From Bacillota bacterium (GTDB taxonomy: Bacteria; Bacillota; UBA994; UBA5500): a stretch of 64,000 nt of DNA. Shown here in pieces: positions 1 through 58,016 of the stretch (its first letter is position 1; each line of letters starts with the position of its first letter). The notes beneath the pieces were generated by a model, which searched no databases, was not told the DNA's origin, and saw only the letters and a program-made list of their open reading frames with translations. Both the position numbers and the translations under genes were made by a program. Where the stretch lies: NCBI GenBank assembly GCA_050949085.1, contig JBMNFB010000009.1, positions 352,446 to 416,445 on the forward strand, given 5' to 3'.

Positions 1-240
1 TTCAATAAGGCGATGTTTGCTTGTCAAACATCGGATGGTACCCAAAGCAAGTCGGTACGACTTGCGAGTTCAATAAGGCGATGTTTGCTTGTCAAACATC
101 GGATGGTACCCAAAGCAAGTCGGTACGACTTGCGAGTTCAATAAGGCGATGTTTGCTTGTCAAACATCGGATGGTACCCAACAGCAAGTCGGTACGACTT
201 GCGAGTTCAATAAGGCGATGTTTGCTTGTCAAACATCGGG
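1..240. repeat. Tandem array A1 of a 68/69-nt double-hairpin unit (at least 3.5 copies; cut by the window edge)
   Basis: Unit AGCAAGTCGGTACGACTTGCGAGTTCAATAAGGCGATGTTTGCTTGTCAAACATCGGATGGTACCCAA restarts at 46, 114 and 183. The third copy has one inserted base. Each unit has hairpins GCAAGTCG-gta-CGACTTGC and CGATGTTTG-cttgt-CAAACATCG. The array ends about 20 nt beyond the hutI stop. Confidence 0.95.
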
Positions 241-13733: not shown

Positions 13734-13809
13734 TGGTGCGCCATCAGGGATTCGAACCCCGGACCCACTGATTAAGAGTCAGTTGCTCTGCCAGCTGAGC
13801 TAATGGCGC
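13734..13809 (-). tRNA. tRNA-Lys (anticodon CTT)
   Basis: Manual cloverleaf: GCGCCAT/ATGGCGC acceptor, GCTC/GAGC D stem, ACTGA-CTCTTAA-TCAGT anticodon arm, TTCGAAT T loop, encoded CCA. Confidence 0.9.
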
Positions 13810-13814
13810 ACGTT

Positions 13815-13891
13815 TGGTGGCGGCGACTGGACTCGAACCAGTGACACTGCGGGTATGAACCGCATGCTCTAGCCAACTGAGCTACGCCGCC
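13815..13891 (-). tRNA. tRNA-Met, elongator type (anticodon CAT)
   Basis: GGCGGCG/CGCCGCC acceptor with G1-C72 paired, TGCGG-TTCATAC-CCGCA anticodon arm, TTCGAGT T loop, encoded CCA. A lysidine-modified tRNA-Ile2 cannot be fully excluded. Confidence 0.8.
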
Positions 13892-30376: not shown

Positions 30377-30790
30377 CAGGGCATCACCCCTGAAGGCGCA
30401 TCCCGATAGGTCGTTAGTGAGGTACCAACCGATGTTTGCAGGCAAACATCGCCTTATTGACATCGCAAGTCCCTATCGGGACTCGCTTAAGAGAAGGCGA
30501 AACGAGACGGGAGTGCTTGCGCACTTGCTAGAGCAGCAACTGTCTGAGCTCTCCCTGGCAGTCATACAAGGTGAGCTCAGACGCCACCCATGGCATAGAT
30601 GCCAAGAGTTCTGGCTTCGGTGGGGCGAGTTTTGCTGCTCCCCGACTCGTTTCGTTTGATACCGTATAAGTTGGGGACATACCTCAGAGACTCAAGACGA
30701 GCATCAGGCAATGCCCACCAAATCGGCATCATGCTGAGGTGTGTCCCCTGACCTTTGACGACATCGGCGCGCCCGAAGGGGTGTGCCCTG
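30377..30790. repeat. Copy A of a structured intergenic element bounded by inverted repeats (candidate ncRNA or MITE-like element)
   Basis: Arms CAGGGCATCACCCCT (30377-30391) and AGGGGTGTGCCCTG (30777-30790). Shares ordered blocks with 42089-42384, including identical AGCAGCAACTGT and GCGAGTTTTGCTGCT. Contains one 68-nt double-hairpin unit. Confidence 0.75.
30421..30490 (-). repeat. Solitary copy of the 68-nt double-hairpin unit, inverted relative to arrays A1 and A2
   Basis: The reverse complement reads GCGAGTCCC-gata-GGGACTTGC ... AATAAGG CGATGTTTG-cctg-CAAACATCG GTTGGTACC. It is collinear with the array unit. Confidence 0.85.
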
Positions 30791-30796
30791 ACTTGG

Positions 30797-30830
30797 GGGG
30801 TTGCTGGTGCAACAGCCCCTTTTCTTATTT
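30797..30830 (+). terminator. Plus-strand hairpin plus T-tract overlapping the purR stop
   Basis: GGGGTTGC-tggt-GCAACAGCCCC (one bulge) followed by TTTTCTTATTT. There is no T-tract on the minus strand, so it fits termination of a plus-strand transcript ending at element A. Confidence 0.5.
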
Positions 30831-31694
30831 CTGACGTCTGAACCAGCAGCCCGGGCTGGCGACAACCCGCTGCCCCACCGGATCGATTTCCTCAAGGCAG
30901 GCCACCGCATAGAATTCGCTGACCAGCTTCTGCTCAGGCTGGCTGGTGGCCACCAGCACTCCACAGCCGACGGTGGTGGCGCCAAACTCCTGCATCAGCT
31001 GCTCCAGCCCGAGGGCGGTTCCACCAGCGCGCATAAAGTCGTCAATGATCAGGGCCCGGGCCGCCTGGGGCACGCTGCGTCGCGGCAGCGCCATCGTCTG
31101 CACCCGCTGGCTTGAGCCCGAAACGTAATTGATGTTCACCGTTGGGCCCTCGCTGCGCTCATGCCTCATCAGGAGCGGCCAGCCTGCCTCACTGGAGCCA
31201 GGCAGTTCCTTGCGGGCGATGGCCAGAGGCACGCCCAGATAACGTGCCGTCGCATAGGCCAGGGGAATCCCCCGCATCTCGACGGTGAGCACCACATCGG
31301 GCTGACGTTCGGCAAAAATGTGGGCAAAAAGCTGCGCAAATCGCTCCACCTGCTGGGCATCGCTGCAGAGATCGCTGGTATAGAGATAGCCGCCGGGGAG
31401 AATGCGCGCCGGATCGGCCAGTTGCTCACAGAGCAGCTGCACCGTCTCCCGCTCCCAGGCAGCATCGCCGCCAGGGAGCCACCTGATCCCGCCGTTAACA
31501 CCGGCAACCGTCTCGATCCGACCCAGATTGAGGGCGGCAAGGCTATCCTTTAGCTGAGCTACATCCTCGCTGAGGGTAGACTTGGCTACGCCTAGTCTGT
31601 CCGCCAGTTCGGTGAGCGAGATCACCTGATTAGGGCGGTCCGCCAGGAGTCGGGTGATAACCCCAGCTCGTCCCCCCTTACTCAACCTCTCCAC
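30825..31694 (-). CDS. purR: Pur operon repressor
   Basis: N-terminal winged-helix region and a PRT domain with LIIDDFMRAGGTALG. Synteny ispE...purR...spoVG. GTG start after GAGGAGG. Confidence 0.9.
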   Translation of the reverse strand: MERLSKGGRAGVITRLLADRPNQVISLTELADRLGVAKSTLSEDVAQLKDSLAALNLGRIETVAGVNGGIRWLPGGDAAWERETVQLLCEQLADPARILPGGYLYTSDLCSDAQQVERFAQLFAHIFAERQPDVVLTVEMRGIPLAYATARYLGVPLAIARKELPGSSEAGWPLLMRHERSEGPTVNINYVSGSSQRVQTMALPRRSVPQAARALIIDDFMRAGGTALGLEQLMQEFGATTVGCGVLVATSQPEQKLVSEFYAVACLEEIDPVGQRVVASPGCWFRRQK

Positions 31695-41989: not shown

Positions 41990-42088
41990 TGCACTCACTC
42001 TCCTTCAGTGATCAAACCAGGGTAATGGTTGCTTTTCATGCAGGGATAGTATCATTCAGGCGCAAGACACTAACTGTCTGCCTGGGGA

Positions 42089-42384
42089 CAGGGCACCGCC
42101 CACCAAGGCCCTTTGGCGGCGTATTCAAAGGAGCGAGACGAGACGGGATCAGAAGCAGCAACTGTTCGAGCGCCCTTGGCGGTCGCTGAAAGCGCAGCTC
42201 GCTATCCCATTCCTGTGACCAGGGACCCAAAGCTCTGGCCTCTCTGAGCGAGTTTTGCTGCTTCCCCGTCGCGGCGAGCTCATACCGACAGACGAGGGAA
42301 GCCCAGGCCTTGGGGGGCGTGGCCTGTCCCCAGATGCTTCCTTGAAGACTGCGGTCGAGCCCGGACCTGGAGGGGCGTGCCCTG
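42089..42384. repeat. Copy B of the structured inverted-repeat-bounded element, inside the metG 5' leader
   Basis: Arms CAGGGCACCGCCCACC (42089-42104) and GGAGGGGCGTGCCCTG (42369-42384). Blocks GAGACGGGA, AGCAGCAACTGT (42154-42165) and GCGAGTTTTGCTGCT (42248-42262) are in the same order as copy A. Confidence 0.75.
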
Positions 42385-42416
42385 GCCCGAGGCACTTCTT
42401 GCACACAGCCCAAACG

Positions 42417-42672
42417 GTACAAAAAACCGCCATCCCCTCAGGGACGGCGGTCCGTGGTACCACCCTGCTTTGCTGGCTAAAGCCAGCCTCAGCGGCATAA
42501 GAAGCCTATCAGATAACGCCTGAATCACGGGGTGACCTAACTCCTGCGAACTCAGCCACCCGGCTCCGGAGCCATCTTCATCGGTAACCCGTCTGCCGGC
42601 TTGCACCTGCACCGGCTCTCTGGAAGACGCGTTGGTCCGATTACTCTTTCCTTCATTGCCTGTAATTTGCGA
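42417..42672 (-). promoter_or_regulatory. T-box riboswitch leader (candidate Met specifier AUG) with intrinsic terminator at 42420-42450
   Basis: Minus strand: stem I elements AGAGAG and GGTGCAA, then CCGAUGAAGAUGG in the specifier region. T-box AGGGTGGTACCACGG with antiterminator ACGG-accg-CCGT-CCCT. Terminator CCGCCGTCCC-tgag-GGGATGGCGG plus TTTTTTGT; its G-T wobble fits only the minus strand. Confidence 0.85.
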
Positions 42673-44184: not shown

Positions 44185-44330
44185 CCTTAGCAGAGTCTCT
44201 GGGAAACCAAACATGGCCTCCGCAGACAGCGAAGGCCATGAAAAGCACACTAAGCTAATCAGGTTATCTTCACCTCGGCAGGCGGTTTCCCTTTAGGCCT
44301 TCCGGCACCTGCTGTCTACGGTCATTTGCC
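44185..44330 (-). promoter_or_regulatory. Ribosomal protein L10 leader (autoregulatory RNA) with attenuator hairpin at 44201-44240
   Basis: Structured untranslated leader between the promoter and rplJ. Attenuator CATGGCCTTCGC-tgtct-GCGGAGGCCATG followed by TTTGGTTT. Family assignment is from position and general knowledge of L10 leaders, not from a covariance-model search. Confidence 0.55.
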
Positions 44331-44359
44331 AGTATACCAGCCACAGCTGGTCTCGTCAA
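44331..44359 (-). promoter_or_regulatory. Sigma-A-type promoter for rplJL
   Basis: Minus strand TTGACG, 17 nt, TATACT. Confidence 0.6.
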
Positions 44360-48130: not shown

Positions 48131-48206
<76 letters not shown>

Positions 48207-48312
48207 GGATTAAATCCTTTCAAATCCCTTTGGGATTTGCAGTGGTACAAGCCGATAGTTGCTACCGCAACAATCGCTTTATTGGATTATCAAATCCCTT
48301 TGGGATTTGAAT

Positions 48313-48389
<77 letters not shown>

Positions 48390-48502
48390 CCGTTATCGAG
48401 TTGTGGTTATCAAATCCCTTCAGGATTTGCAGTGGTACAAGCCGATAGTTGCTACCGCAACGATCGCTTTATTGGATTATCAAATCCCTTCAGGATTTGA
48501 AA

Positions 48503-48579
<77 letters not shown>

Positions 48580-48594
48580 TCGTTTCACATATTG

Positions 48595-48668
48595 TGGAGC
48601 GGGTGATGGGAATCGAACCCACGCAGCCAGCTTGGAAGGCTGGTGCTCTACCATTGAGCTACACCCGC
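48595..48668 (-). tRNA. tRNA-Gly (anticodon TCC)
   Basis: GCGGGTG/CACCCGC acceptor, CCAGC-CTTCCAA-GCTGG anticodon arm, 4-nt variable loop, CCA encoded. Confidence 0.9.
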
Positions 48669-48679
48669 AGACAAATCAA

Positions 48680-48765
48680 TGGTGGAGGAGACTGGATTCG
48701 AACCAGTGAAGGCAATGCCAGCAGATTTACAGTCTGCCCCCTTTGGCCAGCTCGGGTACTCCTCC
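48680..48765 (-). tRNA. tRNA-Tyr (anticodon GTA)
   Basis: GGAGGAG/CTCCTCC acceptor, GCAGA-CTGTAAA-TCTGC anticodon arm, long variable arm, CCA encoded. Confidence 0.9.
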
Positions 48766-55223: not shown

Positions 55224-56291
55224 CTAGAAATGCCGATCCACCAATACCTGCTCCTGCAGACGGCGCAGCCCATCCTTGATAGCGCGAGCGCGCACCTCGC
55301 CGATGCCTTCCACTTCGTCCAACTCTTCCAGCGACGCCCGGAGGATGCTCTGCAGACTCCCAAACTGCTCCACCAGGTTCTCGACCACGCTGGCCGGCAG
55401 CCGCGGAATCTTGCTAGCGATGCGATAGCCCCGTGGCGAGACTGCCTGCTCCAGTGCGTTGAGGCTGGCGCCATATCCCATCAGTCGACAGAAATTGATC
55501 GGTTCCAGCAGCTCCTCCGGCGTGAACTGGCTCAGCTGCTCTTTCAGCTCCTCTGGGCTGCGCGTCTCTCCCGGCGCAGCATAATCGCGCATTACCGCCA
55601 GCGAATCAGCCTCAGAATTGCCCACCAGCTCCACCATCTGCATGTTCACGAGACGACCTTCGGTCCCCAGTTCGATGATATAGCGCTTCAGCTCCGCCAC
55701 AATCCGGGCTACCATTTCAAAGCGCTGGACAACGATGCTCACATCATAGATGGTCACCTGATCCTCAAACTCCAGGGCGCTCAGGTTGATCAGCGCCTGA
55801 TTGAGCACCGCCTGATACTTCTCCAGGGTCTGCAAGGCCTGATTGGCCTTGGAGAGAATCACGCTGAGATCGCGCAGGATGTATTTCTGGGACCCGAGGT
55901 AGAGGCTGATGATGTTGCGCCGCTGAGAGATGGCGATCACCAACTCCTTGGTGAGGCGGGCCACCCGCTCGGCGGTGCGGTGCCGGATGCCGGTCTCGGT
56001 GGAGGGAATACTGGGGTCAACCACTAGCTGGGTGTTGGCGTAAACAATTCTCCGCCCGTCGCTGCTCAGAATAATCGCCCCGTCCATCTTGGCCAGTTCA
56101 TATAATGCCTCGGGCGTGAACTCGCAGTCCAGCTGGAACCCACCGTCAGCCAACTCCAGAACAGCAGGTGAATCGCTCATAATCACAATCGCCCCGGTAC
56201 GGGCGCGTAGAACGTTATCCAGGCCCTCGCGCAGCGGTGTTCCCGGAGCAAGACGACGTAAGGCGCGCTGCAGCTCCTTCTCGTCAGCCAA
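55224..56291 (-). CDS. disA: DNA integrity scanning protein / diadenylate cyclase DisA
   Basis: LAPGTPLREGLDNVLRA, DAC-domain DGAIILS and TGIRHRTAERV, C-terminal HhH EVEGIGEVRARAI. TTG 56291 lies 8 nt after GAAGGAGGGGGG (track TTG 56315 lies inside the repeat array). Confidence 0.92.
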   Translation of the reverse strand: MADEKELQRALRRLAPGTPLREGLDNVLRARTGAIVIMSDSPAVLELADGGFQLDCEFTPEALYELAKMDGAIILSSDGRRIVYANTQLVVDPSIPSTETGIRHRTAERVARLTKELVIAISQRRNIISLYLGSQKYILRDLSVILSKANQALQTLEKYQAVLNQALINLSALEFEDQVTIYDVSIVVQRFEMVARIVAELKRYIIELGTEGRLVNMQMVELVGNSEADSLAVMRDYAAPGETRSPEELKEQLSQFTPEELLEPINFCRLMGYGASLNALEQAVSPRGYRIASKIPRLPASVVENLVEQFGSLQSILRASLEELDEVEGIGEVRARAIKDGLRRLQEQVLVDRHF

Positions 56292-56310
56292 GCCGCTTCC
56301 CCCCTCCTTC

Positions 56311-56599
56311 AGCAAGTCCGTTAGGACTTGCGAGCTAGATAAGGTGATGTTTGCTTGCCAAACATCAGATGGTACATCAGCAAGTCCGTTAGGACTTGCG
56401 AGCTAGATAAGGTGATGTTTGCTTGCCAAACATCAGATGGTACCTTAGCAAGTCCGTCAGGACTTGCGAGCTAGATAAGGTGATGTTTGCTTGCCAAACA
56501 TCAGATGGCACCTTAGCAAGTCCGTCAGGACTTGCGAGCTAGATAAGGTGATGTTTGCTTGCCAAACATCAGATGGCACCTTAGCAAGTCCGTCAGGAC
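56311..56599. repeat. Tandem array A2 of the 68-nt double-hairpin unit (4 full copies plus a 17-nt partial)
   Basis: Units start at 56311, 56379, 56447, 56515 and 56583. Unit AGCAAGTCCGTYAGGACTTGCGAGCTAGATAAGGTGATGTTTGCTTGCCAAACATCAGATGGYACMTY. Fills the radA-disA intergenic space. Confidence 0.95.
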
Positions 56600-56645: not shown

Positions 56646-58016
56646 TCAACTCAACGCCTGCTGCAGCGCCTCGGCTACCTGCGAAACGCCGATCAGTTGT
56701 ACATCTGGATTCTGGTAGCCAGAGCGCAGGTTGCTCCTGGGCAGGATGATCCGCTGAAAACCCAGTTTTACGGCCTCGTTTACCCGGCTCTCCAGGCGGC
56801 TGACGCCGCGCACTTCACCGGCCAGCCCGACCTCACCCAGGATCAGGTCACGCGGACCCGGCGCCCGCTCCCGGAAACTGGAGACAATGGCTACCGCCAG
56901 CCCCAGATCGGCGGCCGGCTCCAGAACCTTGACGCCGCCCACCGCGTTGACATAGGTGTCCTGAAACTGCAGTTGCAGGCCGAGGCGCTTCTCCAGCACA
57001 GCCAGGATCATAGCCACACGGCTGTTGTCCACGCCGGACGTCATCCGGCGCGGCGTGCCCAGCGTGCTGGGGGCCACGAGAGCCTGCAATTCCACGAGAA
57101 TTGGGCGCGTACCCTCCATGGCGGCAACCACCACCGAACCGGCCACGCCGATCGGTCGCTCACCGAGAAACAGCTCCGAGGGGTTCTCCACCTCGCGCAA
57201 CCCGGCCTCGCCCATCTGAAAAACGCCGATCTCGTTGGTGGAGCCAAAACGGTTCTTGACCCCGCGCAACACCCGGAATGACTGATGCCGTTCGCCCTCG
57301 AAATAAAGAACAGCATCCACCATGTGCTCCAGCACCCGGGGGCCAGCGATGGCGCCGTCCTTGGTCACATGCCCCACCAGGAAAACGACGGCTCCAGTCT
57401 GCTTGGCATAGCGGATCAGGCGGGACGCGCACTCCCGGATCTGGGTCACTGTCCCAGGGGCTGAACTCAGGTTGGCATCATAGACGGTCTGGATGGAGTC
57501 AATGACGGCCACCTGCGGCCTGGTCAGCTCCAGCTGGGCCAGGATAGTGGCCAGCTCGGTCTCCGCCGCCAACAGGATCGGGCCGCTCCTCACTTTGAGC
57601 CGATCTGCCCTCAGTTTGGTCTGTTCCACCGATTCCTCGCCCGATATGTAAAGCACTGTAGCGTCCCTTGCAGCCAGCTGACCAGCCAGCTGCATGAGGA
57701 TCGTCGATTTGCCGATCCCTGGATCGCCCCCCAGCAGGATCGCTTCGCCCGGGACGATGCCTCCGCCCAGCACACGGTCCAGCTCAGCGATCTGGGTGGG
57801 AATGCGCATTATCGGTCGCTGATCAATTTCCTCCAGTCGGGCCGGCGCCTGCACTCTCGCCCGGGTCGGCAGATTTGGCGCTGTCGCCTCAATAACTTCC
57901 TCCTGCAGGGTACCCCATTCGCCGCACTCCGGACAGCGGCCCAGCCATCTGGCGGTCTCGTATCCGCAGGCTTGGCAGACATACTTGCTCCTTCGCTTGA
58001 TACCCCTCACCCCCAT
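56646..58016 (-). CDS. radA: DNA repair protein RadA/Sms
   Basis: Zinc ribbon CQACGYETARWLGRCPECGEWG, Walker A GGDPGIGKST, KNRFG, Lon-like C-domain. Confidence 0.94.
   Translation of the reverse strand: MGVRGIKRRSKYVCQACGYETARWLGRCPECGEWGTLQEEVIEATAPNLPTRARVQAPARLEEIDQRPIMRIPTQIAELDRVLGGGIVPGEAILLGGDPGIGKSTILMQLAGQLAARDATVLYISGEESVEQTKLRADRLKVRSGPILLAAETELATILAQLELTRPQVAVIDSIQTVYDANLSSAPGTVTQIRECASRLIRYAKQTGAVVFLVGHVTKDGAIAGPRVLEHMVDAVLYFEGERHQSFRVLRGVKNRFGSTNEIGVFQMGEAGLREVENPSELFLGERPIGVAGSVVVAAMEGTRPILVELQALVAPSTLGTPRRMTSGVDNSRVAMILAVLEKRLGLQLQFQDTYVNAVGGVKVLEPAADLGLAVAIVSSFRERAPGPRDLILGEVGLAGEVRGVSRLESRVNEAVKLGFQRIILPRSNLRSGYQNPDVQLIGVSQVAEALQQALS

Follow-up and report, generated by a model that had tools for sequence, protein, structure and literature searches.

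A hairpin element in the metG leader of an uncultured Bacillota lineage carries an internal module that is conserved across three phyla

Each known family of MITE-type repeats is limited to a single genus or family, and conservation lies at its ends. Correia/NEMIS, ERIC, BOX and bcr1 resemble the family described here in their small size (160-415 nt), non-coding nature, inverted-repeat ends and long hairpin. They resemble it also in their intergenic position, mostly at the 3' ends of genes, their modular build, their division into subfamilies, their co-transcription and the presence of some relatives with terminal inverted repeats (TIRs) and flank duplications. Unlike in MITEs, however, the ends and arms of this family are lineage-specific, while an internal module is conserved across three phyla. 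What is more, its copies A and B have no target-site duplication (TSD), and no parent insertion sequence is known. The Rickettsia palindromic elements (RPEs) are known only from Rickettsiales, and a relationship in sequence is not expected; they too are palindromic repeats, of 100-150 nt, with no known mobilising enzyme, and they lie both between genes and in frame within them, as do the dnaX copies described below. In REP/REPIN sequences the arms (with a 5' GTAG) are conserved and the loop is variable, whereas here conservation is found in the apical module, the arms being unalignable between orthologous loci.

Among published categories, the 'mobile/repeat sequence candidates' (MRSC; Narunsky et al. 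2024, PMC11109978) come closest; they form a single long stem with strong covariation, occur in many phyla and in several copies, have no fixed orientation relative to genes and, as those authors suggest, may act as DNA. We rejected an assignment to MRSC-65-2, a plain long stem defined by a UYCCGG repeat (Narunsky et al. 2024, PMC11109978), because the motif is different: our family has a GCAACUGUYYGAG/CGAGUUUUGC loop and a branched tip.

The stretch of DNA analysed here, called the window below, spans 64 kb and comes from an uncultured Bacillota lineage (features in Table 1). The initial annotation had placed copy B inside the metG leader, and this is confirmed: the element is found between the RF00230 T-box (42437-42665) and the metG start at 41998. 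The RF00230 alignment covers the T-box from end to end, the model ending at 42437 with the terminator, and copy B lies wholly outside it; we therefore rejected copy B as a part of the riboswitch. It is a separate insertion in the same 5' UTR. The extra leader upstream of metG amounts to about 395-410 nt and is lineage-specific. A promoter-like site precedes the T-box (42709-42681, minus strand), and scanning the minus strand from the T-box to the metG start gave neither a promoter-like nor a terminator-like site, so that by position copy B is co-transcribed with metG. Only mechanical ORFs overlap copy B, in several frames and on both strands, with no sign of a coding gene.

The bounds first assigned to copy B, 42089-42384, fall inside the element but proved too narrow, since the outer inverted-repeat arms (42079-42110 and 42363-42394, 32 nt and 78% complementary in the repeat search) widen it to 42079-42394. 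The right arm is duplicated (42300-42340 and 42358-42398 form a direct repeat of 76%). The left arm has a second partner (42082-42101 with 42314-42333, 85% complementary) and a further pairing (42092-42110 with 42306-42324, 84% complementary). The conserved blocks, the arms, the pairings of AGCAGCAA with TTGCTGCT and of GACGGGA with TCCCCGTC, and the second left-arm partner were all recovered as originally described. Copy B folds as a long rod with z-scores of -2.58 on the plus strand and -2.25 on the minus strand. The metG-sense leader folds as one long rod as well, with a z-score of -1.54 that is ordinary for its composition.

Table 1. Positions of the two copies of the element, their parts and the metG features in the window.
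Feature	Position	Strand	Remarks
Copy A	30377-30790	+	414 nt; between convergent genes; R1 match 30524-30647, 50.8 bits
68-nt-unit module, copy A only	30393-30488	-	About 1.4 units (TRF; local alignment score 90, reverse orientation)
metG (methionine--tRNA ligase), 639 aa	40079-41998	-	ORF; homologues carry that name
Stretch from T-box terminator to metG start	41999-42436	-	About 440 nt; 30-45 nt in relatives
Copy B	42079-42394	+	316 nt; delimited by outer inverted-repeat arms
GACGGGA	42142-42148	+	Next helix outward; partner TCCCCGTC at 42263-42270; helix seen in the MFE fold
Apical module of copy B (closing stem, bipartite internal loop, variable tip)	42146-42270	+	R1 match 43.8 bits, E 3e-12, full length
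Closing helix, 5' strand, GAAGCAGCAA	42152-42161	+	Pairs with TTGCTGCTTC at 42255-42264; 100% complementary
Left conserved block, GCAACTGTTCGAG	42157-42169	+	Read from the sequence; fixed by the search pattern in all members used
GCGAGTTTTGCTGCT	42248-42262	+	Read directly from the sequence
Right conserved block, CGAGTTTTGC	42249-42258	+	Read from the sequence; family alignment
Right arm duplicate, inner copy	42300-42340	+	Contains GGGGGGCGTGGCCTGTCCCCAG at 42312-42333
metG T-box leader	42437-42665	-	RF00230, 105.3 bits, full length; separate from the element

Copies A and B are homologous. The window contains just two occurrences of AGCAGCAACTGT, at 30532 and 42154, where about 0.36 chance matches with one mismatch or fewer are expected, and the sequence is joined by GCGAGTTTTGCTGCT only at 30532-30640 and 42154-42262, with an equal spacing of 82 nt. 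The order of the blocks is common to both copies; elsewhere BLAST gives only short pieces. R1, a covariance model of the shared module, gives copy A 50.8 bits and copy B 43.8 bits, and the best match after these in the 64 kb, with filters off, is a generic hairpin at 12.4 bits. Since no third match exceeds this value, the window holds exactly two copies, with a similarity far beyond chance. The core ends of copy B, CAGGGCAC...GTGCCCTG, are shared by copy A and by two other Bacillota loci, L070 (the orthologue of copy A) and L018. A further Bacillota locus, L010, is B-like and shows compensatory pairs: where copy B has GACGGGA/TCCCCGTC, L010 has GGCTGGA/TCCAGCC, and AGCAGCAA/TTGCTGCT is replaced by GGCAGCAA/TTGCTGCC. 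The R1 scores, the covariation of the closing stem and these compensatory changes bear out the proposal that copy B is a diverged, modular second copy of a structured family. That it is not a recent duplicate of copy A was also upheld: the A-like (A, L070 and L018) and B-like (B and L010) subfamilies are separate, and each is found in other organisms.

The two copies differ in structure and composition. Copy A folds with a z-score of -9.98 against about -2.5 for copy B, which is thus far less structured. Directly after copy A there is a plus-strand hairpin followed by a T-run (30795-30835), which is conserved in L070. Tandem arrays of a 68-nt repeat are found at 1-239 and 56306-56599, and the units in copy A run opposite to these arrays; local alignment of the unit gave no match in copy B, in line with the annotation, which had described copy B as lacking it. 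A promoter scan found no sigma-70-like promoter upstream of either copy, and no plus-strand terminator was found after copy B. The only terminator-like match around A and B lies inside the core of copy A and is probably spurious.

Beyond the window, the family exists and its closing stem covaries. The part common to its members is a module of about 100-125 nt, made up of a covarying stem, a bipartite loop (GCAACUGUYYGAG ... CGAGUUUUGC) and a variable tip of 63-93 nt. We scanned metagenome contigs for exact matches to a pattern consisting of GCAACTGTNNGAG, a gap of 63-93 nt and CGAGTTTTGC. This gave 69 loci, about 55 of which score 32-97 bits with R1. A scan of a genome collection, with a pattern over-specific to the window type, returned one true match (L010) and nine chance matches. 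At nearly all of these metagenome loci the blocks lie at the inner ends of a stem whose sequence varies yet remains complementary. In the 47 sequences over which the homologue of the copy B closing helix covaries, 72% of the closing-stem cells are paired, compared with 56.5% in shuffled controls (none of 500 shuffles attains the observed level) and 25-46% with a slid partner, and every pair type is used. Because the exact-pattern search did not select for stem complementarity, these loci are related beyond chance. The blocks themselves are invariant by the method of collection, and covariation is therefore uninformative about them. The tip is variable: by eye, the Patescibacteria type and the window type have two recurrent features, a CCC...GGG pairing and a 'CCCAUKG + small hairpin', but alignments across subfamilies were too poor to yield a consensus tip structure.

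The layout of the blocks recalls a k-turn. The two blocks are not complementary to each other; GCAAC pairs with G..UUGC, UGUYY is unpaired, GA faces GA, and a G-C pair follows, with one further pair (column 26 with 133) in 39 of the 47 sequences. Shared with the k-turn are the canonical-type stem (GCAAC with G..UUGC), the asymmetric loop and a 5'-GA on both strands, placed for tandem sheared G.A pairs. On the other hand, the loop of the family has 5 nt rather than the canonical 3, and there are two extra U on the other strand. A k-turn-like layout with tandem G.A would be a protein-binding site, and we infer that the loop may be a k-turn-like protein-binding RNA on the written strand only. Bacterial L7Ae-type binders (YbxF/YlxQ) are known only from Bacillota, whereas the motif is also present in Proteobacteria and Patescibacteria.

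The carriers of the module differ from lineage to lineage. In Bacillota, where the other copies are L010 (from a Clostridia MAG), L018 and L070, the carriers of the window lineage are branched rods of 300-415 nt with the ends CAGGGCA...TGCCCTG. The type-1 copies, with an optional 38-nt insert, belong to Aquirhabdus-like Moraxellaceae (GyrA 90-92% identical to that of Aquirhabdus). Type 2 is related to type 1, the two being linked by hybrids (L034 and L039), and we take the type-2 copies to be probably from Moraxellaceae as well. Type-2 copies start with a terminator-like hairpin and an AT-rich stretch and have TIRs of 17 nt (TAATGCCAGTCAGTTAA/TTAACTGATCAGCATTA). The Moraxellaceae elements measure about 240-380 nt and have a conserved 3' domain. 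Two loci, L021 and L050, have arms of 75-85 nt. More than 15 distinct loci came from one Aquirhabdus-rich sample. Contigs of 5-15 kb usually carry one copy. The long-stem copies are from Kaiserbacteria/Paceibacterota (Patescibacteria), where near-perfect stems of 29-39 bp take up the whole space from one stop codon to the other of two convergent genes.

Relatives have an empty site at this point of the metG leader. Two of these, GCA_029781045.1 (L081) and GCA_012735505.1 (L083), have the same synteny of an abrB-like gene, the T-box and metG as the window, and their MetG is 72-73% identical to that of the window. The distance from the terminator T-run to the ATG is only about 45 nt in the former and about 30 nt in the latter. 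The comparison of metG leaders that had been proposed thus finds two syntenic relatives lacking copy B and no conserved 400-nt leader, and with only 30-45 nt from terminator to start codon in these genomes we rejected copy B as an ancestral part of the metG leader. A closely related metagenome contig (L078), 99.86% identical to the window over 6270 nt, does carry copy B. Three of the seven substitutions between the two sequences fall inside the element, and two of these, at 42154 and 42259, disrupt separate base pairs of the closing helix and are uncompensated; copy B therefore looks weakly constrained. It is thus recent on the time scale of the family and stands under no visible protection by selection.

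The genomic contexts of the family are varied and tied to no gene. When both neighbours were called, 21 of 36 copies lie between convergent genes and 2 between divergent ones. Clustering of the neighbouring ORFs gave no recurring protein family such as a transposase, reverse transcriptase or nuclease; shared neighbours were limited to DnaX/RarA-type AAA+ proteins and housekeeping genes. One lineage (L014, L056 and L073) carries a copy in frame in the dnaX linker, which is kept open in three related contigs. Type-2 copies sit inside host terminator hairpins and show direct flank repeats at two loci (TTCATAAGAG/TTTATAAGAG at L019, and AATTGGG twice at L035). Inspection revealed no TSD at copy A or B, in agreement with the annotation, or at L070 and L018. 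Nor was there a TSD at 16 type-1 copies, in which repeats within a locus are no longer than those between loci; the GCTTTTG repeats at both ends of type-1 copies were rejected as a TSD, being a shared feature and not a copy-specific duplication. Copy B itself is small and non-coding, with terminal inverted repeats and empty sites as in a MITE, but without a TSD. A full-size parent element, with the blocks far apart on either side of a gene, was not present in 670 kb of related loci, and neither an autonomous partner nor a transposase whose ends match was found. Plasmid searches gave no match, and the single match to a viral contig (L084) was of the chance type and turned out to be the already known locus L066. 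We infer that the family is, or once was, spreading as a non-autonomous mobile element.

The cross-phylum module appears to be undescribed. Copies A and B and 30 related loci matched nothing in Rfam 15 at gathering thresholds, and hits with E up to 5-10 were only chance-level matches to unrelated families; a match to a known family, which would have spoken against the annotation, was thus not obtained for the element in Rfam 15, whose models include HEARO, IS605-orfB, OLE, raiA, 6S, SRP and ribozymes. Literature searches with the block sequences retrieved only unrelated eukaryotic papers, and those on structured RNAs of candidate phyla and on Moraxellaceae repeats retrieved nothing that matched. 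A number of known elements were considered. A relic of an IS200/IS605 palindrome or an omega-RNA was disfavoured because TnpA, TnpB or IscB is not adjacent among the clustered neighbour ORFs. Integron attC sites, single-strand origins of RCR plasmids (CS-6-like TAGCGA), retron ncRNA, group I/II introns, SRP RNA, 6S RNA, hammerhead and other ribozymes, bridge RNAs and the Tn3 inverted repeat were dropped since they have no matching features.

We favour, with a probability of roughly 0.55, a reading in which copy B is a non-autonomous hairpin element that was inserted antisense to metG, is carried passively and takes no part in T-box control. A small, protein-less, rod-shaped interspersed element would have inserted downstream of the T-box terminator and upstream of the metG ribosome-binding site. 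The apical module of about 100-125 nt is the only deeply conserved part of the family, and the long arms vary by lineage. The conserved loop probably acts in a single strand that is folded; the simplest case would be an RNA in the GCAACUGUYYGAG ... CGAGUUUUGC orientation. In copy B the orientation of the core that looks RNA-like is antisense to metG, and so the metG mRNA carries only its complement. This complement would be a passive, moderately stable rod that makes the leader about ten-fold longer and has no role in tRNA sensing. An insertion in the sense orientation would perhaps not be tolerated in the leader of an essential gene, which could account for the orientation that is found. Since relatives lack copy B and its changes are uncompensated, the simplest reading is an insertion that is tolerated and has no T-box role, although copy B may still affect mRNA stability or give rise to an antisense transcript.

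Several observations point to function as an RNA. In type-1 copies the wobble pairs are one-sided, with 10 U.G cells and 2 A.C cells, and there is covariation in an internal hairpin. Such one-sided wobble pairs indicate selection at the RNA level, so that the family may have a function as RNA and be more than a selfish repeat. The informative Moraxellaceae copies, that is those with both neighbours on one strand or with only the upstream neighbour called, are oriented with the genes in 10 cases and against them in 2, and they start 30-50 nt past the upstream stop codon. In the Patescibacteria, a lineage with streamlined genomes, the element occupies one orthologous locus in three genomes, with flanks that are 76-80% and cores that are 77-85% identical; the arms are unalignable and the cores are flipped in one genome. 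The sequence of this locus looks like long-term retention of something useful, unlike recent transposition. These data would fit a family of trans-acting structured ncRNAs with several paralogous genes per genome, of which copy B would be a plus-strand gene that is also antisense to the metG leader. The stable fold of copy A (z -9.98) followed by a plus-strand hairpin and T-run, in L070 too, would be expected of an RNA gene, and the terminator-like hairpin and AT-rich stretch at the start of type-2 copies resemble an insulated transcription unit. We nevertheless regard this explanation as rather unlikely, since copies A and B lack an upstream sigma-70-like promoter and copy B has no plus-strand terminator. 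The helix-breaking changes between copy B and its 99.86% identical relative are uncompensated and its z-score is weak; outer-stem wobble pairs have no strand bias (23 versus 15), and in the assignment of strands by folding energy neither strand was consistently better. One copy, moreover, is translated in frame within dnaX, and the empty site in relatives means that such an RNA gene would be dispensable at the metG locus.

If the conserved part acts as single-stranded DNA instead, the element could be a relic of an IS200/IS605 palindrome or a REPIN-like doublet moved by a Y1/HUH enzyme, with the loop as recognition site or as remnant of a guide-RNA scaffold. The hairpin architecture throughout the family, the lack of a TSD at A, B and the type-1 copies, and the near-perfect stems of 30-39 bp without wobble-strand bias in Patescibacteria are consistent with this, and the bias in gene orientation could mirror a replication-strand bias. 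It is improbable, however, because no TnpA, TnpB, IscB or RAYT-like neighbour recurs, the HEARO and IS605-orfB models of Rfam are unmatched, and the conserved part is apical and not at the ends where such enzymes cut; TIRs with flank repeats, as in type-2 copies, are not made by the IS200/IS605/REPIN families. Slightly more improbable still is a cis-acting second layer of regulation after the T-box, in which copy B would serve in the metG sense as an RNase III or stability element or as a second attenuator. Its co-transcription with metG by position, the single long rod formed by the metG-sense leader, and the change at 42259 in the 99.86% identical contig, which reads as a G.U wobble on the metG-sense strand, would agree with such a role. 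But relatives have the same T-box and metG without copy B, the module also turns up in numerous unrelated contexts, none of which ties it to aminoacyl-tRNA synthetase genes, the metG-sense z-score is -1.54 with no terminator-like site, and the conserved loop is oppositely oriented. With its position not conserved and family members elsewhere adjoining unrelated genes, copy B is not supported as a cis-regulatory element of the metG leader.

The evidence for a mobile repeat and that for a functional RNA can be reconciled if hairpin repeats serve as the vehicle of the module and the module itself is a functional RNA domain. We put forward, as a tentative possibility, that the module is an undescribed functional structured RNA domain of Patescibacteria, Gammaproteobacteria and Bacillota, which probably binds a conserved factor and rides on, or drives, lineage-specific hairpin repeats. 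If this is true, the family would be a new class of RNA-based selfish or domesticated element, with copies A and B as its Bacillota form.

For metG itself, the passive insertion that we favour would mean that the ten-fold longer leader reflects an inserted element and not a second riboswitch, and that 42079-42394 should count as foreign sequence when the T-box is modelled. In small bacterial repeats the rule is restriction to one lineage and conservation of the ends, whereas here an internal folded module is nearly unchanged over three phyla and its surroundings have been replaced. This pattern suggests that the module has a conserved partner, which may be a protein of the host or a mobilising enzyme. 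The loop of the family offers a concrete, searchable motif, and its retention at one locus in divergent, streamlined Patescibacteria raises the possibility that such a repeat may have a cellular function.

The 68-nt unit, which forms two tandem arrays in the window and is also embedded in copy A, is composed of two hairpins, CGATGTTTGCTTGTCAAACATCG and GCAAGTCGGTACGACTTGC, and gave no match in Rfam. The second array is flanked by minus-strand ORFs (55224-56315 and 56646-58016). A module similar to the embedded units of copy A is also carried by the A-like Bacillota loci L018 and L070, the latter an orthologue of copy A. The ribosomal protein L10 leader of the window was found as well in L078, a nearly identical metagenome contig that contains copy B.

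Positions of the features in the window and in related loci (L numbers, mostly metagenome contigs)
Feature	Location	Strand	Remarks
68-nt-unit tandem array	window 1-239		3.5 copies; 96-99% matches over both arrays
68-nt-unit tandem array	window 56306-56599		4.3 copies; 96-99% matches over both arrays
68-nt repeat, ~1.4 units	window 30393-30488		reverse orientation, embedded in copy A
tRNA gene cluster	window 13737-13891		two genes
tRNA gene cluster	window 48134-48765		five genes
Repeat, 190-nt period	window 48220-48584		within five-gene tRNA cluster
Ribosomal protein L10 leader	window 44199-44339	minus	RF00557, 62.6 bits
~46-nt hairpin unit (GAGCCACGGGGACGGTTCCGATGGCTCATCAA...)	L010 3200-3340	minus	3-4 tandem copies
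Family member with closing stem inside dnaX reading frame	L014 3712-3825; L073 9367-9480; L056 2193-2305
Moraxellaceae-like type-2 copies in host terminators	L019 5916-6265; L035 2403-2790; L028; L039
Element at one common locus, Patescibacteria	L055 3235-3387; L011 897-1017; L068 885-1165

In L010, the ~46-nt hairpin units lie immediately upstream of a B-like element, which is itself bracketed by a 30-nt hairpin unit containing TGGGGACAGGCC, present once on each side in direct orientation. In copy B this 30-nt unit makes up the arms, in inverted orientation. Two promoter-like features were noted at window 42028-42057, and neither of them passed a consensus promoter scan. One is a weak plus-strand stretch with a short spacer (TTGCTT ... 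TATCAT) just upstream of copy B; the other, on the opposite strand, is an extended -10-like sequence, TGATACTAT, upstream of the ribosome-binding site of metG.

The dnaX-embedded copy is placed in the variable linker, antisense to the conserved module. The frame stays open through the element in all three related contigs, indicating that the element encodes ~50 DnaX codons. The type-2 copies separate the halves of host intrinsic terminators, leaving an A-tract and stem on one side and a stem and T-tract on the other. These copies start with a perfect hairpin and T-run, made from an additional inverted copy of the element's own left end.

At the locus shared by three Patescibacteria contigs, L068 carries a tandem pair of different core subtypes, both flipped relative to the cores of L055 and L011, and the element arms are unalignable despite 76-80% identity of the flanking genes. 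This combination suggests inversion across the arms, together with turnover that preserves the palindrome. In Patescibacteria (L016, L024, L047, L055, L069, L071, and L074) the two convergent genes end directly at the base of the hairpin, with no gap between it and either stop codon. Of 10 upstream stops, 8 are TAG, so the stops belong to the palindrome (TAG...CTA). Either the element supplied these stop codons, or else the spacer DNA has been wholly lost.
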